From the IMG/VR virus record IMGVR_UViG_3300022591_000004, positions 1 through 64,000 of that record: a DNA stretch of 64,000 nt; one strand, written 5' to 3'. The notes under the pieces are model-generated. The model worked only from the letters and a program-made list of their open reading frames with translations. It did no database searches and was not told where the DNA came from. This stretch comes from a virus. Of this stretch, positions 3,746 through 28,282 are shown piece after piece; the first letter of the stretch is position 1; every line of letters begins with the position of its first letter. The position numbers were made by a program, and so were the translations under genes.

Positions 3746-3838
3746 ACCTGCACAGTATCACAGGGCGCCGAATTTCATAAACTCGGCTACTACTTCTGCA
3801 CAATGAGCGATACCTGTTACTGACACCTGGCCTCAATC

Positions 3839-3963
3839 CTGAGAATTGCCTGAATTAACCCTGGGGGGTGTCTGTGTGTGTAGATAGCCTGTGGATAACT
3901 CGTTGTGGACAACACGGTGTGGATATGTCGGTGCTTGACACTTATTCAGCCTAGTATTACTGT
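3839..3963 (+). promoter_or_regulatory. Composite module 0: CTGAG tandem, three DnaA-box-like sites, sigma70 promoter
   Basis: CTGAGA 3839 and CTGAAT 3850; TGTGGATAA 3890, TGTGGACAA 3904, TGTGGATAT 3918; TTGACA 3935-3940, 17 nt, TACTGT 3958-3963. Confidence 0.8.
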
Positions 3964-4007
3964 GCTCTTAGTGGACAACACGGTTCACTAATTAGACGGG
4001 GGACACA

Positions 4008-4265
4008 ATGGCAAAGGTAGACATGCCAGGCGTTCGTAGCTTGCAGAAGCTATGGACAACTATGGTCGAGCAAGGACACGACCCTATCACAGCGGGTCAG
4101 TGGATTAACGGCGCATTTGGCGCAGATTACGAAATCTGCGACTTCTGCAACAAGTACGGCGCGGATGTTTACGAGTACGACATGGGCTCGACCGCAATTT
4201 GCTCGACCTGCGAGGACAACCAACCAACAATCAACGACCTAGTGAAAATGGAGGTGGAGGCGTGA
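4008..4265 (+). CDS. hypothetical early protein with CxxC...CxxC zinc ribbon
   Basis: 85-aa ORF directly after promoter; GGGGG RBS. Confidence 0.7.
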   Translation: MAKVDMPGVRSLQKLWTTMVEQGHDPITAGQWINGAFGADYEICDFCNKYGADVYEYDMGSTAICSTCEDNQPTINDLVKMEVEA

Positions 4266-4438
4266 GCGCCTTCACCTTCCCACGCACCGACAAGACCTAC
4301 AAGGTTACTGTCGAATTCAGCTTCTACGCCGAGGACGAAACCGAGGCGCAGGAAATAATCAAGTACCAGATTCGACGCCCAATCAACACCGACCTAGTTT
4401 CGGTGGACGATGTGACGATGGTCGAGGTTCCCGAGTGA
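4262..4438 (+). CDS. hypothetical early protein
   Basis: GTGA overlap with previous stop; GGAGG RBS. Confidence 0.65.
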   Translation: MSAFTFPRTDKTYKVTVEFSFYAEDETEAQEIIKYQIRRPINTDLVSVDDVTMVEVPE

Positions 4439-4580
4439 AGCTAGCTCTAGTGTTGGGGGCGGTTCTCACCGCCCTCATCACACACCTGTTCTTCACCCCT
4501 CACTATGGAAACTGTCAGCCAACTGACATCGGCAAGACCTGTACACTCACTCATTACACTCTCAAGGAAGGCAAATAATC

Positions 4581-4742
4581 ATGGACCCACGATTTACAAT
4601 TGCAGATACTTATAAGAAATTGCAAAAGGCGGGAATTTCTTATAAGGAGTTCGAGGCAGAACTAAACAACTGCGGCGGACCCGAGAACGCTTTTAGAATC
4701 TGCTGGAAGTACCAAGACATGGCAGAGGATTCCTGCGCATGA
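4581..4742 (+). CDS. hypothetical early protein (53 aa)
   Basis: Manually translated MDPRFTIADTYKKLQ...; AAGGAAGG RBS. Confidence 0.6.
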   Translation: MDPRFTIADTYKKLQKAGISYKEFEAELNNCGGPENAFRICWKYQDMAEDSCA

Positions 4743-4974
4743 TGACCGATTTAGAGTGGATTCTCTTTCAGCTCAATGGAGTTCTGACGGGAAGCCTGAC
4801 CACCGAGCAGAAGCTCGCCAAGCTCACCGAGCTAGTGGCTAATTGCTCAGAGGAGATAGGGCTAAGCGTATGATTATCCTAGTAGCGATAGCAGTAGGAG
4901 TCTTCGGGGGGTGGCTAGGCTCACTAGCCCCCTCAGTAGAGGATGAAGCACAGATTTAGCCCCCGCTAAAACGA

Positions 4975-5010
4975 CAAGCCCGAGAGCCGTTCCTCTCGGG
5001 TTTTGTTGTT
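4975..5010 (+). terminator. Rho-independent terminator
   Basis: CCCGAGAG-CCGTTC-CTCTCGGG followed by TTTTGTTGTTT. Confidence 0.85.
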
Positions 5011-5012
5011 TC

Positions 5013-5227
5013 TTGAGACTTTCCTGAGAATTACCTGAGCGCAAAAGTTTGTGTTGGTGGTTGATATGTGTGGTGTATGTGCCTATGCCAGCCAGCGGCT
5101 TGTCTCGCTACGCTCGCCAACACAAACATTCGGGCAATTCGGACATTTCAGGCTGTGGATAAGTCGCTGTGTATAACTAGCTGTGGAGAGAGAAGGTACT
5201 TGCATTCTCTACTAATGAGAGTAATGT
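5013..5227 (+). promoter_or_regulatory. Composite module A: 11-bp tandem, IR element, 9-bp tandem, DnaA boxes, promoter
   Basis: TTGAG/CTGAG/CTGAG at 5013/5024/5035; IR 5047-5127; CATTCGGGC-AATTCGGAC-ATTTCAGGC 5127-5153; boxes 5154, 5168, 5182; TTGCAT 5200, 16 nt, TAATGT 5222. Confidence 0.85.
5047..5127. repeat. Inverted-repeat-bounded element A (81 bp)
   Basis: GTTTGTGTTGG 5047-5057 ... CCAACACAAAC 5117-5127, a perfect 11-bp IR. Confidence 0.9.
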
Positions 5228-5274
5228 TCCTCTTGTCGCTAAACGGCGAATTTTAATACAGAAAGGCAAGGCTC

Positions 5275-6267
5275 ATGGCTCACGATTTAGAACAGGGTAA
5301 CGGTCAGACCGCATTTGCACTACGCGGAGAACCTGCATGGCACAATCTAGGAACCGTATTCGACAAGGATGCGGACATCACAACGAAGCAAATGTTAGAC
5401 CTCGCACATCTCTCCAATTGGAATGTTCGTCTAGAGCCCGTTTCCTATCCTGAGGGCTACACCACTGTCAAGGACGCTTATTCGGTTGTCCGTAATCACC
5501 CATTCAACGGCAATCCCGATGTTCTGTCGGTCGTAGGCGAGCGCTACAAGGTTGTCCAAAATGAGGAACTCTTCTCATTCGGTGACGGCATGCTAGACGG
5601 TGGCGGGGCATGGGAATCGGCGGGTTCTATCAAGGACGGTCGTGTCGTGTTCGGCTCAATCGTTATTCCGCGCGAATTTATCCTCGACCCTAGCGGAATT
5701 GCCGATAAGACAGTTTCCTATCTGCTTGTCCATACATCACATGACGGCTCGACCGCTCTACAGGCGAATGTAACGCCAATTCGCGTGGTCTGCCAGAATA
5801 CCCTCAATATCGCGCTAGGCTCTAGCAAGCAATCTTTCAAGGTTCGCCACACTCAGACAATCGGCGGACGCATGGAAGAGGCACGTCGTGTACTAGGCTT
5901 AACATTCTCCTACATGGACGATTTCCAGAAGCTGGCGCAAAATCTATTCGAGAGCGAGATTACTAATGCCCAATTCGACAAGCTTGTTGCAGGGCTCTAT
6001 CCAAAGCCTGATGAAGCTAGCAAAATGGCAACCACTAAGTACACCGACAAGCTCGACACCATCCACAATCTCTATAAAGTTGCAGCAACGCAAGACGGAA
6101 TTCGTGGCACGAAATGGGGAGCGCTCAACGCGCTCACAGAACGAGTTGATTATTTCCGTACAAGCCGAACAGGAGACAATAAGTCTCTCATGGCTTCTGC
6201 CAGCGGATTCGACGTCCAGACCAACGCTGAAAAGAACAAGATTCTAAAAGCGGTCATGGCACTGTAA
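5275..6267 (+). CDS. DUF932 / phage-plasmid TIGR03299-like protein
   Basis: EPAWHNLG, YKVVQNEELF, ESAGSIKDGRVVF, SHDGS...TPIRVVCQNTL, HT and GTKWGALNALTE motifs. Confidence 0.9.
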   Translation: MAHDLEQGNGQTAFALRGEPAWHNLGTVFDKDADITTKQMLDLAHLSNWNVRLEPVSYPEGYTTVKDAYSVVRNHPFNGNPDVLSVVGERYKVVQNEELFSFGDGMLDGGGAWESAGSIKDGRVVFGSIVIPREFILDPSGIADKTVSYLLVHTSHDGSTALQANVTPIRVVCQNTLNIALGSSKQSFKVRHTQTIGGRMEEARRVLGLTFSYMDDFQKLAQNLFESEITNAQFDKLVAGLYPKPDEASKMATTKYTDKLDTIHNLYKVAATQDGIRGTKWGALNALTERVDYFRTSRTGDNKSLMASASGFDVQTNAEKNKILKAVMAL

Positions 6268-6276
6268 CAAGATAAG

Positions 6277-6303
6277 TAGAGGGGCGGGGAAACCCGCCTC
6301 TCA
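6277..6303 (+). terminator. GC hairpin, terminator-like
   Basis: AGAGGGGCGGG-AAA-CCCGCCTCTC right after the DUF932 stop; no U-tract. Confidence 0.6.
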
Positions 6304-6518
6304 CCTAATTCTCAGACACGCCCGAGCGCGTTGCAGAAAAGTTTGTGTTGGGTGGCTGGGTGGGGTGGTGGTTGTTTCCTTTAATACTTTCGTAGCTCGC
6401 TTACTCGCTTCGACACAAACATTCGCAAAACGGACATTTCGGGCTGTGGATAACCTGGTGTGGATAAAGATATACACAGGGCGAGAGTTATTGACTTCTA
6501 CGATAACAAGAGTATTGT
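6299..6518 (+). promoter_or_regulatory. Composite module B
   Basis: TCTCAC 6299 and TCTCAG 6310; IR 6341-6420; AAAACGGAC-ATTTCGGGC 6427-6444; TGTGGATAA 6445 and 6459, ATATACACA 6470; TTGACT 6491, 16 nt, TATTGT 6513. Confidence 0.85.
6341..6420. repeat. Inverted-repeat-bounded element B (80 bp)
   Basis: GTTTGTGTTGG ... TCGACACAAAC. Confidence 0.85.
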
Positions 6519-6556
6519 CCTCTCTGTAAGGCAAATAACTACTACAGAAGGAGAGA

Positions 6557-6724
6557 ATGATGATTCAGTCACCATTCACGTCACAGGAAGTCCGTAAGCT
6601 GTTCGTCCTCGTCTGCGCTTCACCAGATATTGAGATGAAGGAAGCCATCGAGCTTCTCAACAAGTTGGATTCTTTGCATATCGCCACCAAGGGCGTCGAA
6701 TATTATGAAAGTCAGGGGGTGTGA
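6557..6724 (+). CDS. hypothetical early protein (55 aa)
   Basis: Manually translated MMIQSPFTSQEVRKLF...; AAGGAG RBS directly after promoter B. Confidence 0.65.
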   Translation: MMIQSPFTSQEVRKLFVLVCASPDIEMKEAIELLNKLDSLHIATKGVEYYESQGV

Positions 6725-7007
6725 GGTGAAAACACTGGCGGATTTTAAGCGCGCACTTACTGTAGGCACTGAAGTAGAACTACTTAGCTTAGCAAAGAAC
6801 GTCAAGGGTGGGCGCTTGCAGGTTGGTATGGTGCGCCGAGTCACCAAGGCAGATACCACTGGCGTGTACTTGCAAACCGAAGGACTCGAAGGTCGAGGTT
6901 CATTCTTAGGTTGGGATAAGGCTAAAGATTGGGTGTTTGACGGCGATAGGGCTATTAATATCGTCTGGGGCTATTCATACCGAGTATTGAATAAAGAGGG
7001 CAGCTAA
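6705..7007 (+). CDS. hypothetical early protein (probable start GTG 6726)
   Basis: ORF followed by a hairpin. Confidence 0.7.
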   Translation: MKVRGCEVKTLADFKRALTVGTEVELLSLAKNVKGGRLQVGMVRRVTKADTTGVYLQTEGLEGRGSFLGWDKAKDWVFDGDRAINIVWGYSYRVLNKEGS

Positions 7008-7019
7008 TACTTAGCTAAG

Positions 7020-7042
7020 TTGAGGGGCGAAAGCCCCTCAGC
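7020..7042 (+). terminator. GAAA-tetraloop hairpin, terminator-like
   Basis: TGAGGGGC-GAAA-GCCCCTCA. Confidence 0.65.
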
Positions 7043-7239
7043 CAATTCTCAGGAAAATGTTTGTGTTGACCGAGCGAGCAGCGAGGGCAATCAGTGGCTG
7101 GCATGGGCATATACCTGCATATATCAACCGACACAAACAATTCGGACATTTCAGACAAATTGGGCTGTGGATAACTCGTTGGGGATAAAGTTATACACAA
7201 GGGGAGAGTATTTGACATATCTATAGAAAGCGATAGTCT
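7036..7239 (+). promoter_or_regulatory. Composite module C
   Basis: CCTCAG 7036 and TCTCAG 7047; IR 7059-7138; AATTCGGAC-ATTTCAGAC-AAATTGGGC 7139-7165; TGTGGATAA 7166, TGGGGATAA 7180, TTATACACA 7191; TTGACA 7212, 16 nt, TAGTCT 7234. Confidence 0.85.
7059..7138. repeat. Inverted-repeat-bounded element C (80 bp); interior is an inverted homolog of element A
   Basis: GTTTGTGTTGA ... CCGACACAAAC; interior CGAGCGAGCAGCGAG...TGGCTGGCATGGGCATATAC...ATATCAACC aligns to the reverse complement of the A interior. Confidence 0.88.
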
Positions 7240-7286
7240 TCTCTTTGTAAGGCAAACAACCACTCTAGAAAGAGAGTAAAGGCAAA

Positions 7287-7535
7287 ATGGCAAAACTTCT
7301 ACCACGCTTTGAGGTAAAGGTTACCGCAGAGTATCACTACGAGTCCGAGGACTTTGATACCGAAGGCAACCTTACCCGCGAAACTGTCGAGAATGACGCA
7401 AGTATCGCTTTCTACGACAATGTTAATAATGCCGAAATCTACTCAACCGAGATTACCAAGTCTTGGTTCGAGTGCGAGGATTGCGGCGAAGATGATGTCG
7501 AAGAAGACCACGAGTGCGAAAACGAGGCTGAGTAA
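7287..7535 (+). CDS. highly acidic hypothetical early protein
   Basis: 82 aa, D/E-rich, C-terminal CEDC...HEC. Confidence 0.7.
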   Translation: MAKLLPRFEVKVTAEYHYESEDFDTEGNLTRETVENDASIAFYDNVNNAEIYSTEITKSWFECEDCGEDDVEEDHECENEAE

Positions 7536-7768
7536 TGACACGCAAGGACTACCAGCTTATTGCTAAGACTATTTCAGACTTCCGCTACGAGGGTACGGAG
7601 TTCCGTGACCCTGTAATGATTGCCCTGATTGACCGTCTTGGGGCGCGTATTTGTGAGGCGTTGGAAAACGAAAATCCGCGCTTTAACGCCGATAAATTTC
7701 TAGAGGCTATGGAATACGGAAAACGCCCTACCACCGATGAAATCGTCATGCGAGCGTGGGGGTCGTAA
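7535..7768 (+). CDS. conserved phage hypothetical protein (MTRKDY...NPRFxxxKF)
   Basis: MTRKDYQLIA and ENPRFNADKFLEA motif. Confidence 0.75.
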   Translation: MTRKDYQLIAKTISDFRYEGTEFRDPVMIALIDRLGARICEALENENPRFNADKFLEAMEYGKRPTTDEIVMRAWGS

Positions 7769-7817
7769 TGAAAACCACCGAAGACTACTACAAGGCTTAT
7801 TACAAGGGAGAAATAGC

Positions 7818-8018
7818 GTGAAAAAAGGCATTAAAGAAGTCCTTCAGATTGCTCTAGAAGAAGCTGACGACTATAGCTACGTCCTAACACAGGAACAAGC
7901 CGCAGAACATCGGGGCGCAAAATACGCTCTATACGAGGTTTATCAGTATCTCTTTGATGAGTCATACCAGACCGAGCGTGACAAGCGCCTAGAGGCTAAA
8001 CAGAGTTCTCCCGCGTAA
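7818..8018 (+). CDS. hypothetical early protein
   Basis: GTG start with GGGAG RBS; followed by terminator. Confidence 0.6.
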   Translation: MKKGIKEVLQIALEEADDYSYVLTQEQAAEHRGAKYALYEVYQYLFDESYQTERDKRLEAKQSSPA

Positions 8019-8050
8019 GTTATTTGCCTTTCTGACGCGGTTGAGATGGG

Positions 8051-8090
8051 ACATAGAGCGGAGACTACCCTTCGCTCTTTGTTCATTTTA
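8051..8090 (+). terminator. Rho-independent terminator
   Basis: AGAGCGGAG-ACTACC-CTTCGCTCT followed by TTGTTCATTTT. Confidence 0.65.
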
Positions 8091-8118
8091 GTAGAAAATT
8101 CGCGCCTAAGCGCCAAAA

Positions 8119-8218
8119 GTTTGTGTTGGTCACTCCTTGATATGGTCATATATGTGCATAATGTGCTGTGCTGGCTATCACACGTGACAAAACCCACCCA
8201 CCCGCTACCAACACAAAC
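8119..8218. repeat. Inverted-repeat-bounded element D (100 bp)
   Basis: GTTTGTGTTGG 8119-8129 ... CCAACACAAAC 8208-8218, perfect IR. Confidence 0.9.
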
Positions 8219-8237
8219 ATTGCCAGCCTTGTCAAAT

Positions 8238-8280
8238 CTGAGAGTTAGCTGAGAGAGTTATCCACAGAGAGTTATCCACA
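8238..8280. promoter_or_regulatory. CTGAGA tandem and two perfect DnaA boxes in reverse orientation
   Basis: CTGAGA 8238/8249; TTATCCACA 8258 and 8272. Confidence 0.85.
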
Positions 8281-8335
8281 GGCTGCGAGCGCCCAAGTGG
8301 GCAAATATCGACAAATTGACATGTAAATAAAGAGA

Positions 8336-8351
8336 TGTTTCACGTGAAACG
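8336..8351. promoter_or_regulatory. parS-like centromere site
   Basis: TGTTTCACGTGAAACG; 15/16 match to the bacterial parS consensus TGTTTCACGTGAAACA, with a perfect 14-bp palindrome. Confidence 0.8.
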
Positions 8352-8441
8352 CTGATTCGGCTACTATTTAGCTGAGTAGAGAGAGTAAGCGGTGGTAAGA
8401 CCAGATTGCTGGGGGTATCCCGAGTGTTCCTATCGCATAGC

Positions 8442-8642
8442 CTGAGAAGAAGCTGAGTGAGAGCTGAGAGAGACTATCCCTATCCCCTTCCCTATCCCTA
8501 TACCTATATAAAGAAAGGCTCAGAATCGCTTAGGCGCGAAATTTTTATAGGGGGTTGTGGATAACTGCTTGTGGATAAACACCTGTGGATAACTATTTAT
8601 TTATCGTGGTGTGTTGCATTATCCCTTTTTATCCCCTAGTGT
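8442..8642 (+). promoter_or_regulatory. Composite module E: CTGAG x3, three perfect DnaA boxes, promoter
   Basis: CTGAG 8442/8453/8464; TGTGGATAA 8556/8570/8584; TTGCAT 8614, 17 nt, TAGTGT 8637. Confidence 0.85.
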
Positions 8643-8729
8643 CCTGTCTATCAGGTTATGAGTGATAACAAGTAAGCGATTAGGTAGCCCTAGTCCACCT
8701 GATACACCTACCACAACGAAAGGCAACAC

Positions 8730-9023
8730 ATGAACCTCACACAAAAGCAAAATGTCGCTAAAAGCCTGAAAAACGCTAAGGGTATCGCGTGGGATACCTG
8801 CCATAAGATTTATATTCTTATGGACGATAATCAAATGGAACTCATGCGCGGTTATGGCTATGACCCATTGGTTAGCTCAGTAGATACTACCCCTGACGAG
8901 ATGTTGGCTCTTATCGAGGATTGGTTCGACAATTCGTGCGACCTACGTTTCATTGACTCTGTAACTACTGACACCGAGAATCCTAACGCGGGATTTCTTA
9001 CTGTTGTAGGGCAGGATTTCTAA
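8730..9023 (+). CDS. hypothetical early protein
   Basis: 97 aa; GAAAGG RBS; WDTCHKIY and SCDLRFI motifs. Confidence 0.75.
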   Translation: MNLTQKQNVAKSLKNAKGIAWDTCHKIYILMDDNQMELMRGYGYDPLVSSVDTTPDEMLALIEDWFDNSCDLRFIDSVTTDTENPNAGFLTVVGQDF

Positions 9024-9355
9024 TGAGCTATATAAAGAGCCTATTAGAGGATATTAACGCCGAGTGCGAGAACGAAAATATCCCTGTCAAGGCGTTTATT
9101 GCTTATCTAGATAATGACCATATCCCGCTAGGGGAGTGGCAAGACCATATTCCTAACTTCCATGAGGCTTACGTAGGTAAGTACGATTCGGTCGCGGATT
9201 TTGCTTCTGATATGGCTGAGCGCTTGGGCGTATTTACTGAGGCTAGTAGTTATGACTCTTTCTTGGTTCGATACTTTGATTTCGAGGCTTGGGGGCGCGA
9301 TTTATTACAGGGTGATTACTGGGAGATTGACGGTTACTACTTTGGGAGTTACTAA
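9023..9355 (+). CDS. ardA: ArdA-like antirestriction protein (C-terminal domains only)
   Basis: Acidic; FHEAYVGKYDS..DFA...LVRYFDFEAWGRDL...YF matches the ArdA C-terminal signature. Confidence 0.75.
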   Translation: MSYIKSLLEDINAECENENIPVKAFIAYLDNDHIPLGEWQDHIPNFHEAYVGKYDSVADFASDMAERLGVFTEASSYDSFLVRYFDFEAWGRDLLQGDYWEIDGYYFGSY

Positions 9356-9356
9356 G

Positions 9357-9542
9357 ATGAATACACGTCACCACCACGATACCGTCAAGATTCTGTATGA
9401 CGAGTCGGTGCTATGCCTACCGTGTTGGAACGGTCAAGAGGGCGCGATTATCAGCACCGAAGAACGTTGCCCCGAGTGTAGTGGGGCGGATATTCAGGAC
9501 AAGATTACCGAGTGCGATAGTTGCGGAGAGGTTATTAACTAA
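9357..9542 (+). CDS. small Cys-rich zinc-finger protein
   Basis: CLPC, CPEC, CDSC. Confidence 0.6.
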   Translation: MNTRHHHDTVKILYDESVLCLPCWNGQEGAIISTEERCPECSGADIQDKITECDSCGEVIN

Positions 9543-9543
9543 G

Positions 9544-9813
9544 ATGAATAAATGTTACGAATGCGGTTGGTCGGATTCTGATATGGGATTCTTCACCGAA
9601 GAAGCGGGCAAACTGTATTGCTCACTTCACCGCTCGCTATCCATGCAAGAGCTTTCCGAGCTGACCCATGAGACTCAGGTCGAGCGCTTTGGGTTCTGCA
9701 CCTGTGAGGAACAAGAGAACTTTCCTTACTCAGATTGTCCTAGACCCGAGCCCGAAGAAAAAAACGACTGGTCACTCTACGGAGTGCAGAAAGGATACGA
9801 AGACCATGCTTAA
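9544..9813 (+). CDS. hypothetical Cys-containing acidic protein
   Basis: MNKCYECG...FCTCEEQENFPYSDC. Confidence 0.6.
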   Translation: MNKCYECGWSDSDMGFFTEEAGKLYCSLHRSLSMQELSELTHETQVERFGFCTCEEQENFPYSDCPRPEPEEKNDWSLYGVQKGYEDHA

Positions 9814-10060
9814 AGTAAGCTCAGTAAAGCACGAAGACACCGCTTGGGACAAGTTTATTAACCTTACTTATGAAGGTAATGAGTACCGCGCTATTCTCCA
9901 TTGGGATAAGTGGGAAGGGTACGAACTGGTGAGCTTTACAAACCCTAAGGGTGAATGGATTGACACGCCTGAGTGGGCTGTTGATTGGGAAGAACACAAC
10001 GAGAAGAGCCTTAACTATCTATTAGATGAGTTGAGCGACGAAAAACTAAAGGAGAACTAA
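9806..10060 (+). CDS. hypothetical early protein
   Basis: MLKVSSVKHEDTAW...; Trp-rich and acidic. Confidence 0.65.
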   Translation: MLKVSSVKHEDTAWDKFINLTYEGNEYRAILHWDKWEGYELVSFTNPKGEWIDTPEWAVDWEEHNEKSLNYLLDELSDEKLKEN

Positions 10061-10062
10061 AC

Positions 10063-10494
10063 ATGGGATACACACACTACTTTCAGATTCATAAAGAGAT
10101 TGCACCTACGCGCTGGAGCTACTTTATCAAGGGCGCAAATACTATCCTAAGCCACGCATGGGACTTTGCCCTAGAGGGTGAGCTTAATAGTGAGGTCGTA
10201 GTTATCAACGGCATAGGTGAAGAGGGGCATGAGACCCTGTTTATTAGTAGGACTAATACACGCTGGGAATTCGTCAAGACCGCCAAGAAACCTTATGATG
10301 ATGTGGTTACGGCTATCTTAATCCTAGCTCGTTATGTCTTTGATGAAGACTCCTTCTCCCTATCTTCTGACGGTTCATGGTCAGATTGGTCGCTAGGGCG
10401 CGAATTATTTACTGAGGCTATGTTCTTAGAACCTGCCGAGCAAACCGTATTCGGCAACACCAAGCACGTCTTTCCTGAGAGGACTCTCGCATAA
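10063..10494 (+). CDS. conserved phage hypothetical protein (MGYTHY...KT.KKPYD family)
   Basis: MGYTHYF, HETL, FVKTAKKPYD, SSDG motifs; AAGGAG RBS. Confidence 0.8.
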   Translation: MGYTHYFQIHKEIAPTRWSYFIKGANTILSHAWDFALEGELNSEVVVINGIGEEGHETLFISRTNTRWEFVKTAKKPYDDVVTAILILARYVFDEDSFSLSSDGSWSDWSLGRELFTEAMFLEPAEQTVFGNTKHVFPERTLA

Positions 10495-10973
10495 TGCACA
10501 CACTACATTGGATTGCGGTAGAGGCAGATAATGAACCTGAGGCTTTCTCAAAGGCACAAACAGAGATGATTAGCGCGGAAGGCATGTGGTGGGACTGGTA
10601 TGACAATTCTATTGGCGGTCGCTGGGCTAATAATGATTGGTGCAAAATCTATCAAGGCAAAGATATCTTGATTGGTTTAGACCATGTTAAGACTAATCGT
10701 AAAGAAGAAGTTGAGAGAGCGTTAGAGAAGATAGACCTATCTGAGTTTGAGTCTCAACTTAATAATTATGACGGAGAAGATGTAGTCACTACCGATTACT
10801 CCCTGAACCTATGGCGTATTAAAAAGCTCGCGCAGTTATTAGACGGAGAGTGGAATTGCGACTCTTACTTCTATGACATGGTTTATGGAAGCGCGAATAT
10901 GGCAGACCTATTAAAGCGCATAGAGTCTGACCCTGATAAGCAGTTCCTCGTCCCTATTGACTTTCACTTTTAA
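10494..10973 (+). CDS. hypothetical protein (WDWY..GGRW...DFH family)
   Basis: WWDWY..IGGRW and C-terminal VPIDFHF. Confidence 0.75.
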   Translation: MHTLHWIAVEADNEPEAFSKAQTEMISAEGMWWDWYDNSIGGRWANNDWCKIYQGKDILIGLDHVKTNRKEEVERALEKIDLSEFESQLNNYDGEDVVTTDYSLNLWRIKKLAQLLDGEWNCDSYFYDMVYGSANMADLLKRIESDPDKQFLVPIDFHF

Positions 10974-11058
10974 GGAGAACAACAATGAATAACGACGAAA
11001 ATGGTCTAAACATATCTCAGTTTAATATCATAGATATAAAAGTGGAAGCAGGAGAATA

Positions 11059-11223
11059 ATGGAGAAGTTTTATACACCCGCGCAGGTAGCCGAGGCTATG
11101 TCTGTCACAAGAGAGACTATCTATAAGCTGATTAAAGAGGGCAAACTGAACTCATATAAGTTTGGCGGAATGGTACGCATATCAGAGTCACAACTAAGAG
11201 AAGCATTGGAGAGTACCAAGTGA
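11059..11223 (+). CDS. excisionase/BldC-like winged-HTH DNA-binding protein (HTH_17 type)
   Basis: Manually translated MEKFYTPAQVAEAMSVTRETIYKLIKEGKLNSYKFGGMVRISESQLREALESTK; AGGAG RBS. Confidence 0.85.
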   Translation: MEKFYTPAQVAEAMSVTRETIYKLIKEGKLNSYKFGGMVRISESQLREALESTK

Positions 11224-11480
11224 ACTCAACACAAACCACGCCGATTGGCGCGACAGTAATGATTCGCTGGAAGGATATGCCTGAGGAGTTACAGTTTCAG
11301 GAATATATCTCTTTTGGGGAGTACGACGAAGATAGCGAGCAAGATGGTTTTGGCGTTGATGATTTCTTTATCTTCAGCTATGTAGATAGCCTAGAGGAGT
11401 TGCAACGCATGGAAGGAAAGCTAGATAATCTTAATTTTGATTGGTTACTAACAGAAATCGGAGAAGTGCATTATGCGTAA
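11220..11480 (+). CDS. acidic hypothetical protein
   Basis: 86 aa; GTGA overlap. Confidence 0.65.
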   Translation: MNSTQTTPIGATVMIRWKDMPEELQFQEYISFGEYDEDSEQDGFGVDDFFIFSYVDSLEELQRMEGKLDNLNFDWLLTEIGEVHYA

Positions 11481-12375
11481 GTTATTACTAGCCTTAATAG
11501 TGGGTGCGACCCTTGTCTCACCTGCCTATGCTGGTACACCAACGACACCTACGGTTGTCCTTGTGGATAGCGGAGTTAATGACTCGTTGTTTAGCGCGAA
11601 TATCGTTTATGAAGCGTGTTTTATTGAGAATACCACCTGCGCTAACGGCAAAAATTCTATGGAAGGCGTGGGGTCTGCTCAGCAAGTTACCACATCTACT
11701 AATGCTGAGGTTAATCACGGAGAAAATATGCTCTCTATCATGGTTAAAGTTAATCCTAGTATTAAAGTAATTCCTATAAAAATTGTGGGAGTTACGGCGT
11801 TAGGGAATCCCTATCTGTATTCTTTAGCCTCTGTTAAATCCTCGTTGGATTGGGTCGTGGCTAATCAAGCTAAGTTTAATATTGGAGTAGTTAATATCTC
11901 TCAAGGCGCGATATTCGCTGGGTGTGCCGTCCCTGCTGGATTACAGCAAGATATTAACATCTTACAATCAGAGAACGTTCAGGTCGTCGCCGCAACAGGT
12001 AACACCAGTAACAGAGCTCAAATGTTTGCACCTGCCTGCTTGCCTAACGTCATCTCAGTAGGAGCAACGGATAATCCGTGGGGTGGTATGCAACCTTACG
12101 CATGGGACTCAAAAGCTAATCCTAGTATTGGTCTATACAGCAACGGAAACAGTTCTACAACCCTTTACTCGAATGCTCGATACTTTGTTACTCAGCTTAA
12201 TGGAGTGGTGAAGTTTATGGCTGGCACGTCCAACGCCACAGCCGCAGTATCAGCATGGCTTAGCCTCAATAGAGGGGCAAATTGGACAACAACATACAAT
12301 AATCTGATAACATCAGCCTCGGGAACAGCAACCAACCAATGGCTTACGGGTCACTACCTATTCATTAACTCATAA
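11473..12375 (+). CDS. secreted S8 (subtilisin-like) serine peptidase
   Basis: Signal peptide MRKLLLALIVGATLVSPAYA; catalytic D (VDSG), H (NHG), oxyanion AATGN, S (GTSNA). Confidence 0.88.
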   Translation: MRKLLLALIVGATLVSPAYAGTPTTPTVVLVDSGVNDSLFSANIVYEACFIENTTCANGKNSMEGVGSAQQVTTSTNAEVNHGENMLSIMVKVNPSIKVIPIKIVGVTALGNPYLYSLASVKSSLDWVVANQAKFNIGVVNISQGAIFAGCAVPAGLQQDINILQSENVQVVAATGNTSNRAQMFAPACLPNVISVGATDNPWGGMQPYAWDSKANPSIGLYSNGNSSTTLYSNARYFVTQLNGVVKFMAGTSNATAAVSAWLSLNRGANWTTTYNNLITSASGTATNQWLTGHYLFINS

Positions 12376-12385
12376 GGAGAGAGAC

Positions 12386-12655
12386 ATGGCTAAGAAAATA
12401 GAAAAGTCGCTAGACGCGTCACTTACTAAGAACACCTCAGTAGAGCGGGGCGGTGCATGGCTTCTCACCGTAGAAGATGACAATGGCATTAACCACTCAG
12501 CTTGGTCTAATCTTTCAGCCGCTAAACGGTATCTAAAAGCGTACGTTATGGAAAACACGACACGTAAGTCTATTAAGATGGAAATTAAAGCAACAGATGA
12601 AAAAGAAAAGCCAACTCACTTAACAGGTTCTATTGCATGGAAGGTAAATGCTTAA
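12386..12655 (+). CDS. hypothetical basic protein
   Basis: 89 aa; AAGGAG RBS. Confidence 0.7.
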   Translation: MAKKIEKSLDASLTKNTSVERGGAWLLTVEDDNGINHSAWSNLSAAKRYLKAYVMENTTRKSIKMEIKATDEKEKPTHLTGSIAWKVNA

Positions 12656-12840
12656 TGAAAAAAGTAATCCTAGTGGCAACCGCTTTGACCGCGTTTTCTA
12701 TCTCATCAGCGCAGGCAAGCACCCCTAATCTTGCTGGCTATATCTGTGTGGACAAGCAAGGCGTACACCATATGTGGCAGGACGCTTTTAACGGCTCTAC
12801 ATACTGCAAGTTAATTAAGAATCCTAATAAGAAGAGCTAA
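12637..12840 (+). CDS. small secreted protein (probable start MKKV at 12655)
   Basis: Signal peptide MKKVILVATALTAFSISSAQA. Confidence 0.6.
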   Translation: MEGKCLMKKVILVATALTAFSISSAQASTPNLAGYICVDKQGVHHMWQDAFNGSTYCKLIKNPNKKS

Positions 12841-15160: not shown

Positions 15161-16633
15161 TCAGCCTTCGCTGATATCTTTAATAATTTTGGTGGTCTGC
15201 TCTTCATTTAAGCCGCCGTTTGGCAGCTCTCGAAGGGCTTGCGCCTTGTCTCCAAAGATGTTAGAAAGCACACCAGCAGACCCATTTTTTGCCTCTACAG
15301 TCATGCGAATAAACGAGGCTGAGTCGTCCAAATCCTTGGTAGTTTTGATGAGCTTAAACAATCTGTCAATCTCTTGGGAAACGTTTGGGTCTGCGTATCC
15401 ACCGTTCATTTCTTCAGTAAAACGCATAAAAGCGACTCTTTGACCCTGCATTTCAATCATTGCGTTAATCAAACTCTTAAGTTGGTCTTTAGTCTTTACC
15501 TCAATAGGAAGGTTGAAAGCGCACATTGTTTGCGGCTTAAAAGCAGGGCAGTTGGCGGCTACAAAACAGGTATCGCACTGGCGAATTGTGCTACTTTGCG
15601 AGCGCACAACAGGAACGTCTTTGATGATGTCTTGACCATCTTCATCGGTCTCTACAACGGTCTTAAAGTCGTATCCGAAGACGGGTAAATTGCCCATTTC
15701 TTCTGGATTTCGGCTCTCAACTTTCCGCATGCCAATACCCTTGTTATCGCTTACGCTGGGGGTAGTTTCCCCACTATCCTCCACATCGCTCCACTCGCTG
15801 TTATGCGATAGGAAGCCGTCTTCTGCGCCACTCATGTTCATCCTCGCTTCGTATTGTTCGTATGACCATACAGCCAGACGACAGACTTCTTGTGGGTCAT
15901 CTTCCATAATCAGGTCGTAGCTCAAGCCCGCCTTTTCATACACCTTGGCGTATCGTACCCGAGCTTGCTCCTTCATACTCTTGTTGTATCTAACAAGCTT
16001 AGTACCGTCCCAGACAATCGTTTCACCGTGGAGCATGGGAGCCAGCCATGACAGGGTACTGGCGGTCTCTACCTTGACCTGACGCAGGTTGTAGGGCTTA
16101 GCGGTGTTTATGGCGTGGAAGCGGGTTCCTCGGGCTGTATAGCCCCGTGTAAGGGCGGCTAGCTGGGTCTCGTGCTCAATGTCGTCACCCATGATTCCTA
16201 TGTCTAGGTAGTGCTCGACCATCTTCTTAAAACCGTCTATGCCTGTCTGGGGCTGCCAAACTGGTTGGAACTTGGAGGGCGGAACTTCATTCCAGCAGGT
16301 CTTCCTCTGCTCTGCAATAAACTCAGGAGTGAGCATGGGGTGGACAACCTCATTAAAGCTCACAATCCTGTCTATGTTATTGGCGATGAACTCCTCGTAC
16401 AGGGCGCAAAATTCTTCTAGCTCATCCTGTGTGAGCTTTTCGACCTTGGGGATACCTGCATGGGCGTAGATATGGGTATCGGGCGTAAAGTAATTCTCTA
16501 AAAGGTATGCCTTAGTTTTGGGTAACCCACGACGATATAGGCGCCAGAAACTAACCCCAACATGGTTGGCGGTGGTGGACTCTAGAAGGGTACGGTTGGA
16601 TGGAACTTCCGCACCTAAGTAAATGATTCGCAT
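15161..16633 (-). CDS. hypothetical protein; possible TGT-like TIM-barrel N-terminus and Cys4 C-terminal domain
   Basis: FHAIN...VETASTLSWL resembles the H(G/A)xG...(D)SxSW motif of phage TGT-like proteins; CDTC...CPAF...CAF. ORF certain, function tentative. Confidence 0.5.
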   Translation of the reverse strand: MRIIYLGAEVPSNRTLLESTTANHVGVSFWRLYRRGLPKTKAYLLENYFTPDTHIYAHAGIPKVEKLTQDELEEFCALYEEFIANNIDRIVSFNEVVHPMLTPEFIAEQRKTCWNEVPPSKFQPVWQPQTGIDGFKKMVEHYLDIGIMGDDIEHETQLAALTRGYTARGTRFHAINTAKPYNLRQVKVETASTLSWLAPMLHGETIVWDGTKLVRYNKSMKEQARVRYAKVYEKAGLSYDLIMEDDPQEVCRLAVWSYEQYEARMNMSGAEDGFLSHNSEWSDVEDSGETTPSVSDNKGIGMRKVESRNPEEMGNLPVFGYDFKTVVETDEDGQDIIKDVPVVRSQSSTIRQCDTCFVAANCPAFKPQTMCAFNLPIEVKTKDQLKSLINAMIEMQGQRVAFMRFTEEMNGGYADPNVSQEIDRLFKLIKTTKDLDDSASFIRMTVEAKNGSAGVLSNIFGDKAQALRELPNGGLNEEQTTKIIKDISEG

Positions 16634-27966: not shown

Positions 27967-28282
27967 GTTTTTCCAACCAACCTTCTAGTGAGAGACCAAC
28001 CTTAGCAGCTTTTCGTTTCAATGCGTTACGCTCTCGGTGGCTGAGTCCTCCCCATATACCGTGCTGTTCATCCATCTCTTCTGCATAAAGCAGACATTTA
28101 AGACGAACTGGACATTCAGGGGCGCCATCTTTACCAAAGCAAACGGCTTTAGACTTATCGGCTATGTTTTTGTATTTAGATTTATCGCGTGGCGGGTACC
28201 ATAACTCTGTATCCATGCCACGGCATTTAGCGCTATGACGCCAGTCTTCTACGTAGCCTGAGCTTTCGTACGACAAGTGCAC
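27944..28282 (-). CDS. whiB: WhiB-family Fe-S transcription factor
   Basis: AKC...VC...CPVRLKCL...HGIWGGLS.RER. Confidence 0.92.
   Translation of the reverse strand: MHLSYESSGYVEDWRHSAKCRGMDTELWYPPRDKSKYKNIADKSKAVCFGKDGAPECPVRLKCLLYAEEMDEQHGIWGGLSHRERNALKRKAAKVGLSLEGWLEKHGKGRKV

Follow-up and report, generated by a model that had tools for sequence, protein, structure and literature searches.

The early gene block of a phage, captured in the virus record IMGVR_UViG_3300022591_000004, is headed by six composite intergenic modules, M1 to M6 (3837-8642). The window analysed here is the stretch of 64,000 nucleotides that forms the first 64 kb of this record of 95,668 bp. Our reading of the modules, to which we assign a probability of about 0.5, is that they are reiterated terminator/hairpin/promoter cassettes, similar to the promoter early stem-loop (PeSL) units of T4-type phages, and that their early promoters are co-regulated by host DnaA. 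The cassettes would serve the early gene block, with functions in host takeover and anti-restriction, of a lytic freshwater actinophage. In each of them, a GC hairpin or terminator would close the upstream small operon, and a long hairpin on the gene-sense strand would follow, which in the RNA would serve for processing, for stabilisation of the 3′ end or as a back-up terminator. A promoter of the sigma-70/HrdB type would then open the next operon. Host DnaA would bind perfect boxes in a fixed register and thereby adjust early transcription, probably as an activator, so that the take-off of the phage would be coupled to the replication state of the host. The unit of ~250 bp, present beside unrelated genes, would additionally supply the homology for gain, loss and swapping of cassettes. 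Binding by host DnaA and ParB, the direction of the regulation and the role of the hairpin at the RNA level are what we infer. The sequences themselves show the motifs, which are enriched, regularly spaced, covarying and conserved in relatives, as well as turnover of the cargo and a phage lacking DnaA and ParB.

DnaA-type boxes in register with early promoters

The DnaA box is defined as the 9-mer TTATCCACA (= TGTGGATAA) or by the consensus TT(A/T)TNCACA, and the perfect boxes of the modules agree with it at all nine positions. At no more than one mismatch, TGTGGATAA has 41 matches in the window, compared to 14.0 ± 3.5 in shuffled sequences, none of 100 shuffles reaching 41; 16 of these near-perfect or perfect matches fall within 3890-8592. 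Genome-wide there are 14 perfect boxes, ten of which lie inside these 4.7 kb. The direct repeat CTGAG-N6-CTGAG is similarly concentrated, as its five copies in 95.7 kb are all found within the region (mean of 0.22 and maximum of 2 in shuffles). The enrichment of both motifs over shuffled DNA bears out what the preliminary description had expected.

Within the modules, the boxes are spaced by 14 bp from start to start, and their distance to the promoters is kept. Promoters and terminators are identified throughout as matches to consensus sequences. The start of the first box lies 45, 46, 46 and 46 nt from the −35 hexamer in M1, M2, M3 and M4, respectively. M6 has three perfect boxes at 58, 44 and 30 nt from its −35, by which the 14-bp register is maintained. 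In M5, which faces left, a − strand TTGACA is located exactly 45 nt from the first − strand box, with no clear −10.

Relatives were collected by an exact-pattern scan of IMG/VR for the inverted-repeat element of the modules itself, so that the collection is silent on kin without the element. The scan gave at least 34 related loci, many of them on contigs of ~95 kb and with up to five element copies each. Together they hold 67 distinct GTTTGTGTTGG...CCAACACAAAC elements, and for 40 of the 67 a perfect TGTGGATAA is located on one side at a distance of up to 45 nt. The number of mismatches in the best box is bimodal, with 40 elements at 0, only five at 1-2 and 22 at 3-4, which is the background level. 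The box is thus either perfect at its nine canonical positions or absent, which is hard to ascribe to chance resemblance, and the likeness to host DnaA sites that had been pointed out before holds at this level. Conservation extends to the flanks of the box: C is found at −1 in 39 of 42 cases and at +9 in 33 of 42, followed by T in 35 of 42. Each of the five complete relatives has its elements and boxes restricted to a few kb. The same module grammar heads different cargo in these loci (34 loci, 16 clusters of first genes), as had been predicted, and its recurrence in diverged relatives with unlike cargo supports the earlier proposal that the modules are under selection.

Arrays of such boxes also occur elsewhere. 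On unrelated IMG/VR phage contigs of 30-60% GC (L001-L084, e.g., L038:780-920 and L019:330-800), up to ~9 CTGTGGATAAC boxes are found together, many with a 14-bp phase and often directly upstream of a gene without Pfam family, and L005 carries 23 of them in ~600 bp. The array scan gave 84 such stretches, with ~3 expected by chance according to an estimate. The genes downstream of the arrays in these unrelated contigs were uninformative.

A structured element at the cassette boundaries

The second recurrent part is the inverted-repeat element GTTTGTGTYGR...YCRACACAAAC. The genome's only paired copies are the four located at 5044-5133 (M2), 6338-6425 (M3), 7056-7143 (M4) and 8116-8223 (M5), the first three on the + strand. 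The interior of the M4 element corresponds to the reverse complement of that of M2, with a score of 24.5 against a null of −7.6 ± 3.7. In most relatives, the element folds as a whole into a near-perfect long hairpin or a three-way junction, with z-scores of the interior between −5 and −9. Counted inward from the ends, stem positions 12-22 are paired in 70-82% of the elements, compared to 39-55% with shuffled partners, and each of these positions shows 4-6 pair types, i.e., covariation.

Several results indicate a preferred strand. When every element is placed with its box on the downstream side, 62 G.T pairs are counted against 21 A.C pairs (p = 7.5e-6; 27 against 10 in hairpin-type elements), and folding of the sense strand is better than that of the antisense strand across elements (Wilcoxon p = 1.8e-5). 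As sense RNA, the elements of M2, M3 and M4 reach −34.3, −29.9 and −28.5 kcal/mol (z −2.8, −3.8 and −2.8). The M3 element, which has many G-U pairs, reaches −12.3 kcal/mol (z −1.1) as antisense. For the M5 element, a long form of 108 nt with CCCACCC repeats, the − strand, which is the sense strand of the leftward unit, folds at −32.5 vs −28.4 kcal/mol, with z-scores of −1.5 and −1.7 that are both not significant. When folded as single-stranded DNA, the four elements of the window have no significant structure. The notion of plain paired sites that this suggested was dropped after the folds of the relatives and the use of RNA parameters.

Because of the sense-strand folding and the wobble bias, the structure appears to matter on one strand, probably in RNA. 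The hairpin thus most likely acts on one strand, in RNA, at cassette boundaries, and it can be read as a transcript-boundary element that might back up the terminator, be a processing site or stabilise the transcript. The preliminary description had likened the motifs of the modules to sites of host DnaA, ParB (parS), OmpR/PhoB-family regulators and BldC/Xis-type proteins. The inverted repeat is neither a parS-like site of ParB nor one of OmpR, nor a duplex site bound by protein, since its stem covaries and its best fold is that of the sense RNA. The assignment of motifs to OmpR/PhoB-family regulators was based on resemblance alone and found no support here. A search of Rfam 15 gave no match for the window and, for relatives, only matches below the gathering score that resemble microRNA precursors, which are generic long hairpins. 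The element pattern has 0 matches in 185,579 prokaryote species genomes and hence belongs to neither host repeats nor prophages.

Two further structural details can be mentioned. In one sub-lineage (L088:3775-3859, 4849-4937 and 6096-6184; L085:10317-10406 and 11619-11713) the element is a three-way junction, in which two hairpins, one rich in GC and one composed of A/T only (AAAAATA...TATTTTT), are enclosed by an outer stem of ~20 bp; by our own reading, their order with respect to the direction of the genes agrees between the two loci. The long element of M5 contains, at 8176-8190, a CACGTG-centred sequence with a CACGTGA core like that of parS, but with more than 3 mismatches to the 14-mer, so that it is no parS.

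Cargo turnover and cassette exchange

The genes behind the modules vary strongly. In 39 modules with hairpin plus box, the first downstream genes belong to 16 unrelated clusters, DUF932 being the commonest. The DUF932 proteins of relatives are 49-73% identical to that of the window, and that of the closest relative, L042, is 97% identical. The cargo of M3, M4 and M6 has no homologue in any related locus. A link of DUF932 to plasmid leading regions was unconfirmed from the papers found and is not used here.

In L042, whose identity to the window is ~90%, an additional cassette of ~1 kb lies exactly between the terminator at 4976-5003 and the M2 hairpin. This cassette carries its own long element, three boxes and a promoter. 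Moreover, 18% of the homology breakpoints lie no more than 60 nt from a hairpin, compared to 7% at random (maximum of 17% in 500 random draws), although this enrichment is only modest support since the loci are related. The earlier suggestion that shared modules allow cassettes to be shuffled is hence backed by one whole-cassette indel bounded by a module and by breakpoints that are enriched at hairpins. No integrase, transposase (including Y1) or resolvase family was found among 59 further open reading frames (ORFs) scanned. Shuffling probably proceeds by homologous recombination, and the phage has a RecA.

The same observations have to be considered for the possibility that the hairpin is itself a mobile or recombination element, either a transposon resembling a miniature inverted-repeat transposable element (MITE) or an attC-like single-strand site that moves cassettes. 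The element does have conserved ends around a variable interior that preserves structure, as do attC sites and repetitive extragenic palindromic (REP) elements. It occurs in both orientations, it stands at the boundary of the cassette indel where breakpoints are enriched, and one strand is favoured, as in attC. As in integrons, unrelated small genes are separated by imperfect palindromes with pairing interiors. However, the ends GTTTGTG/CACAAAC do not fit the attC cores RYYYAAC/GTTRRRY, and the cassettes carry their own promoters and terminators. For a MITE or REP-like repeat, the interiors are too divergent, even between copies within one genome, and no target-site duplication is visible. In addition, such an element is at odds with the lack of recombinase families among the scanned ORFs and with the absence of the pattern from prokaryote genomes. 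We therefore regard mobility of the hairpin as improbable and keep to the reading of reiterated cassettes, in which the hairpin marks the transcript boundary.

The gene-free stretch and its parS site

The largest non-coding stretch of the early block is the gene-free region 8040-8729 (690 bp), which is opened by an intrinsic terminator (8055-8078, + strand). It contains M5, whose long-form element (8116-8223, − strand) is followed by a leftward unit at 8230-8280 with TTGACA at 8230-8235, CTGAG repeats at 8238-8254 and perfect boxes at 8258-8266 and 8272-8280, all on the − strand. M6, on the + strand, consists of three CTGAG units with 11-bp phase (8442-8469) and then CCCTATCC-type short repeats (together 8442-8497), three perfect boxes 14 bp apart (8556-8592) and a promoter-like site TTGCAT, 17 nt, TAGTGT (8614-8642), which heads the genes from 8730 onward, including the ArdA-like gene 9023-9355. 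A 21-nt inverted repeat with 90% complementarity (left arm 8092-8112, right arm 8527-8547) encloses the long element, the reversed boxes, parS and CTGAG repeats; this symmetric layout recalls the IRD′/IRC′ arrangement of T5.

Between the two − strand and the three + strand perfect boxes lies the parS site. The definition of chromosomal parS, i.e., the palindrome GTTTCACGTGAAAC as core of a 16-mer, is matched perfectly at 8337-8350, which is the sole copy in the genome, with no other match at up to 2 mismatches. The perfect 14-mer is present in three of six complete genomes (the window, G001 and G005), each time beside a hairpin element, whereas the chance expectation is estimated at ~3.5e-4 per genome. 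The resemblance to ParB sites noted in the preliminary description is therefore real for this 14-mer, while the inverted-repeat element is not parS-like. A literature search on phage parS together with host ParB gave nothing relevant. Host ParB would be loaded onto the phage DNA at this one parS, next to the gene-free control region.

Since the stretch combines inverted sets of boxes around parS with a 21-nt inverted repeat, iteron-like short repeats and AT-rich tracts, it could also be viewed in terms of replication. It would then be a DnaA-dependent origin that mimics the oriC-parS region of the host, or the combinations of hairpin and box would be priming sites similar to single-strand initiation (ssi) signals. 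DnaA could recruit the helicase, loader and primase of the phage, and in relatives a corresponding region contains tandem repeats and an element of the long form, of which, as with that of M5, one is found per related genome. Yet boxes also head ordinary cassettes at promoter distance, and their number varies widely across relatives. The box is located outside the hairpin stem, unlike in the A-site type of DnaA-dependent priming signal, reportedly described by Masai and Arai in 1995, where it is said to lie within the stem. Moreover, an unassigned gene of 288 aa adjoins the DnaC-like loader gene, which is the usual spot for a phage initiator with an internal origin. A role as origin or priming site is accordingly considered quite unlikely.

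Promoter control, titration or a phage regulator

A further alternative, the main idea of the preliminary description, is that the array functions as a sponge for host factors, in which the boxes and parS soak up DnaA and ParB as the phage DNA amplifies, thereby blocking re-initiation and segregation, the promoters being incidental. The genome offers 14 perfect boxes and one perfect parS while it has no DnaA or ParB of its own, the boxes are strictly perfect and hence of high affinity rather than degenerate, and the region is a block of the host-takeover type with an ArdA-like gene. A sponge, however, requires no fixed register to the −35, and the boxes are never clustered away from promoters, unlike in datA-like loci. 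Most relatives have one box per module and some have almost none, and parS is present in only half of the six complete genomes. Promoter control is preferred over pure titration because the distance from box to −35 is kept among paralogous, otherwise diverged modules, and the fact that box use varies between lineages argues against an indispensable decoy. While a sponge as the main function is thus rather unlikely, it is compatible with control of the early promoters by DnaA, and titration of DnaA and ParB may plausibly be a side effect or a second purpose.

A number of points weigh against our reading of reiterated, DnaA-regulated cassettes. The related loci are non-independent samples. A promoter scan of the region gave 15 matches vs 12.2 ± 3.8 in shuffles, i.e., no enrichment, and none of the public sequencing runs with phage sequence is an RNA run. 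Many hairpins of relatives are perfect Watson-Crick palindromes and would be just as consistent with a cruciform in the DNA. A plain role as terminator or stabiliser does not account for the strictly conserved stem base of 11 bp, whose sequence is set by the search pattern and whose conservation is measured among matches only; this base suggests either that a protein recognises the stem or that homology for recombination is under selection. Lastly, three of the five complete relatives have few perfect boxes, with GTTAT(C/A) or other repeats in the slot instead, which means that control by DnaA does not extend to the whole family.

It seems that differing sets of sites can occupy the slot between hairpin and promoter. 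In L087, L088, L089, L093 and L113, which have one or no box, GTTAT(A/C) repeats ~11 bp apart stand between the box or hairpin and the promoter, and in L115 GTCCTACCCTTGA is found at each promoter. This brings in another alternative, namely that the boxes are operators of a phage-encoded early regulator, like the CIR operators of phiC31 or phage stoperators, with a coincidental identity to the DnaA box. Co-evolving regulators would predict the filling of the slot by other short repeats (GTTATC, GTCCTACCCTTGA) in other lineages; likewise, the position of the boxes at early promoters in a fixed register and the conserved C...CT flanks reaching beyond the 9-mer suit such a regulator. On the other hand, a match to the canonical DnaA box at nine of nine positions in 40 independent sites is very unlikely by chance, CTGTGGATAAC arrays with 14-bp phase recur in unrelated phage contigs, and a perfect host-type parS co-occurs. 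Furthermore, the boxes are not accompanied by any conserved gene for a DNA-binding protein. In L106, which retains the boxes, both neighbours of the HTH_17 (Xis/MerR-like) gene have a homologue but this gene itself has none, so that its product is not the common binder. The preliminary assignment of motifs to BldC/Xis-type proteins was made on resemblance alone and found no support. We thus attach little credence to a phage-encoded regulator, and DnaA remains the preferred binder of the boxes.

Composition of the individual modules

The six modules had been described as holding a common set of parts, and these are found at the places given for them, well above chance in counts against shuffles. 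The full set in order is limited to M2-M4, as M1 and M6 lack the inverted-repeat element and M5 faces left. Aligned to each other, M2-M4 have a mean column identity of 70%, and much of the invariance coincides with the motifs. The features below are on the + strand.

M1 starts with a CTGAG-type direct repeat with 11-bp phase (TCCTGAGAATTGCCTGA, 3837-3853). It is followed by three DnaA-type boxes 14 bp apart (TGTGGATAA, TGTGGACAA and TGTGGATAT, 3890-3926) and a promoter-like site TTGACA, 17 nt, TACTGT (3935-3963). An extra box-like AGTGGACAA at 3970-3978 falls within a 20-nt repeat of 3899-3918. Cassette 1, with small genes at 4008-4960, is closed by an intrinsic terminator hairpin with a T-rich tail (4976-5003). 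M2 then has three (C/T)TGAG units with 11-bp phase (5011-5039) and, behind its hairpin element, a degenerate 9-bp tandem (TTCGGGCAA, TTCGGACAT and TTCAGGCTG, 5129-5153). Next come the boxes TGTGGATAA and TGTGTATAA and the degenerate TGTGGAGAG, again with 14-bp phase (5154-5190), and a promoter-like site TTGCAT, 16 nt, TAATGT (5200-5227) in front of the DUF932 gene 5275-6267.

In M3, a GC hairpin without T-run is overlapped by an inverted CTGAG unit (6300-6315; together 6279-6315). Downstream of the hairpin element are two perfect boxes 14 bp apart and one inverted, imperfect box (6471-6479; together 6445-6479), and a promoter-like site TTGACT, 16 nt, TATTGT (6491-6518). Its cargo, consisting of the genes 6557-6724 and 6726-7007, belongs to no Pfam family and, as said, is without homologue in related loci. 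M4 is built in the same way, with a GC hairpin (7022-7041) and an inverted CTGAG unit (7037-7054) before the element, the boxes TGTGGATAA and TGGGGATAA with an inverted TGTGTATAA after it (7166-7199), and a promoter-like site TTGACA, 16 nt, TAGTCT (7212-7239). The cargo at 7287-8018, including an acidic protein of 82 aa, is equally without family or homologue in related loci.

Three of the parts need qualification compared to the preliminary description. The CTGAG tandem with 11-bp phase is present and enriched, with the 16-nt unit inverted in M3 and M4. The 9-bp tandem is real but degenerate, the exact ATTCGGAC occurring only twice in the region, and it is lineage-specific, being limited to the window and L042. 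Terminator hairpins are present as well, but a T-run is missing from the GC hairpins that precede M3 and M4; in relatives, a GC hairpin with T-run directly precedes most elements.

Comparison with known systems

The nearest concept is that of the PeSLs, which in T4-type phages combine a terminator with a promoter, lie beside variable early genes and serve the exchange of modules (PMC4122927; PMC2839356). The modules described here share with them the repetition of terminator and early-promoter units, placed between small genes that are variable and mostly unknown, within an early region that is plastic. As in PeSLs, a terminator or GC hairpin is followed by a promoter-like site in intergenic DNA (M2-M4 and M6), repeated copies flank variable genes, and the indel and breakpoints between close relatives are bounded by the units. 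The phage is an unrelated actinophage, so that the modules resemble PeSLs in working and not by descent. At ~250 bp they are also much larger, and they add a long hairpin with a conserved stem base, perfect DnaA boxes, CTGAG repeats and parS. Excised circles have been shown experimentally for T4-type phages, whereas the present cassettes are known from sequence alone.

The nearest precedent for the DnaA boxes is the pre-early DNA of T5, in which conserved boxes have been known since 1987, with a function still under debate (as cited in 10.1101/866236). The injection stop signal region in the first-step-transfer DNA of T5 is untranslated conserved DNA by the pre-early genes, with fixed consensus DnaA boxes, inverted repeats and palindromes, and its conservation exceeds that of neighbouring ORFs (10.1101/866236). 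In the present phage, box sets of opposite orientation and the 21-nt inverted repeat flank 8092-8547, and the contig closes on a 99-bp overlap. The T5 boxes, however, are paired 3 bp apart in two large inverted repeats of one region in the terminal repeat that enters first, whereas those described here have a spacing of 14 bp and recur cassette by cassette, in front of every early promoter. The cassettes thus combine PeSL-like units and T5-like DnaA boxes, to which the conserved hairpin and parS are added.

Other early regions are built of short units too. The host-takeover module of SPO1 has many short early operons, each with a strong promoter and a terminator, and in the early region of T7 conserved long hairpins between early genes act in the RNA as RNase III sites. 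We know of no host DnaA or ParB sites reported in either of them. Neither has a sequence relation to the cassettes, and the hairpin can be likened to RNase III sites by its layout. At the level of the sites, a counterpart is found in bacteria, where DnaA-box clusters (oriC, datA and DnaA-regulated promoters) and chromosomal parS have the identical 9-mer and 14-mer palindrome, with tandem boxes in one orientation; the placing of boxes at promoters resembles DnaA-controlled genes. Here, by contrast, the sites are on a lytic phage with its own helicase, loader, primase and polymerase, and the boxes are spread over five rightward promoters and one leftward promoter-like unit instead of being gathered in a single cluster.

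The phage and its host

The genome, whose ends overlap by the 99 bp mentioned above, looks circular. A protein family scan identified tail sheath and baseplate wedge genes, which makes the phage a myovirus. It encodes PolA, ribonucleotide reductase, DnaB, a DnaC/IstB-like loader, primase and RecA. The earlier observation that it has its own replication proteins is therefore correct, and neither DnaA_C (domain IV) nor ParB_N was found in the phage proteins. It further encodes an SPP1-type portal and a large terminase with T4-type Pfam domains, from which we would surmise headful packaging and a permuted genome. Nearly all genes are on the − strand, with the exception of the + strand block of small genes 4008-12840, which carries the DUF932, ArdA-like and HTH_17 proteins and a subtilase, and of which the modules form the head. 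Among ten early-cassette proteins scanned in 4008-9023, nine have no Pfam family, DUF932 being the exception. The subtilase (Peptidase_S8) gene, 11473-12375 (+), is 68% identical in L106.

On the − strand, a queuine tRNA-ribosyltransferase-like gene (DpdA/TGT-type; 15161-16633) adjoins the ribonucleotide reductase gene, by which guanine in the phage DNA may be replaced by a 7-deazaguanine derivative. One of 27 ORFs from a batch scan of 16633-41765 matches SpoVS (E = 2.5e-28), a family of small nucleic-acid-binding proteins.

The nearest cultured phages are distant, and the sheath shares no more than 38% identity with its counterpart in Streptomyces phage BRock. In a nucleotide search of cultured phages only the DUF932 gene was matched, at 65-68% identity, in Streptomyces phages of the cluster BE type. 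Two WhiB genes are present, at 28019-28243 (−) in the window and at G000:C1:86527-86712 (+). Their nearest cellular relatives have 34-44% identity and are almost all labelled Actinomycetota, mostly metagenome-assembled genomes of Acidimicrobiales, which argues for an actinobacterial host. The WhiB relatives thus hint at a freshwater actinobacterium. A search for the host with the phage RecA gave no relative. Among public sequencing runs, the DNA occurs in viral and freshwater metagenomes.

Implications

With perfect boxes in fixed register before many early promoters of a diverged phage family, a vague association between phages and DnaA becomes a hypothesis at the promoter level. For a perfect host parS on a lytic phage without its own ParB no report was found, and the site provides a handle on whether ParB is exploited or sabotaged. 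The hairpin, with an invariant 11-bp base and a covarying stem, is an undescribed structured element of which 67 natural variants are available. The cassettes furthermore illustrate how early (anti-defence) genes are exchanged among uncultured actinophages of abundant lake bacteria. A more far-reaching and rather doubtful view is that this family of freshwater actinophages reads the chromosome-cycle machinery of its host, using promoters switched by DnaA as well as sites and parS that disable initiation and segregation. If true, the early promoters would fire only in cells competent to initiate replication, and host initiation and segregation would be disabled as the phage copy number rises. 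The array would then be a protein-free, DNA-encoded sensor and decoy assembled from cis-acting sites of the host, and the boundary of each cassette would be marked by a structured RNA that is new and specific to the family.

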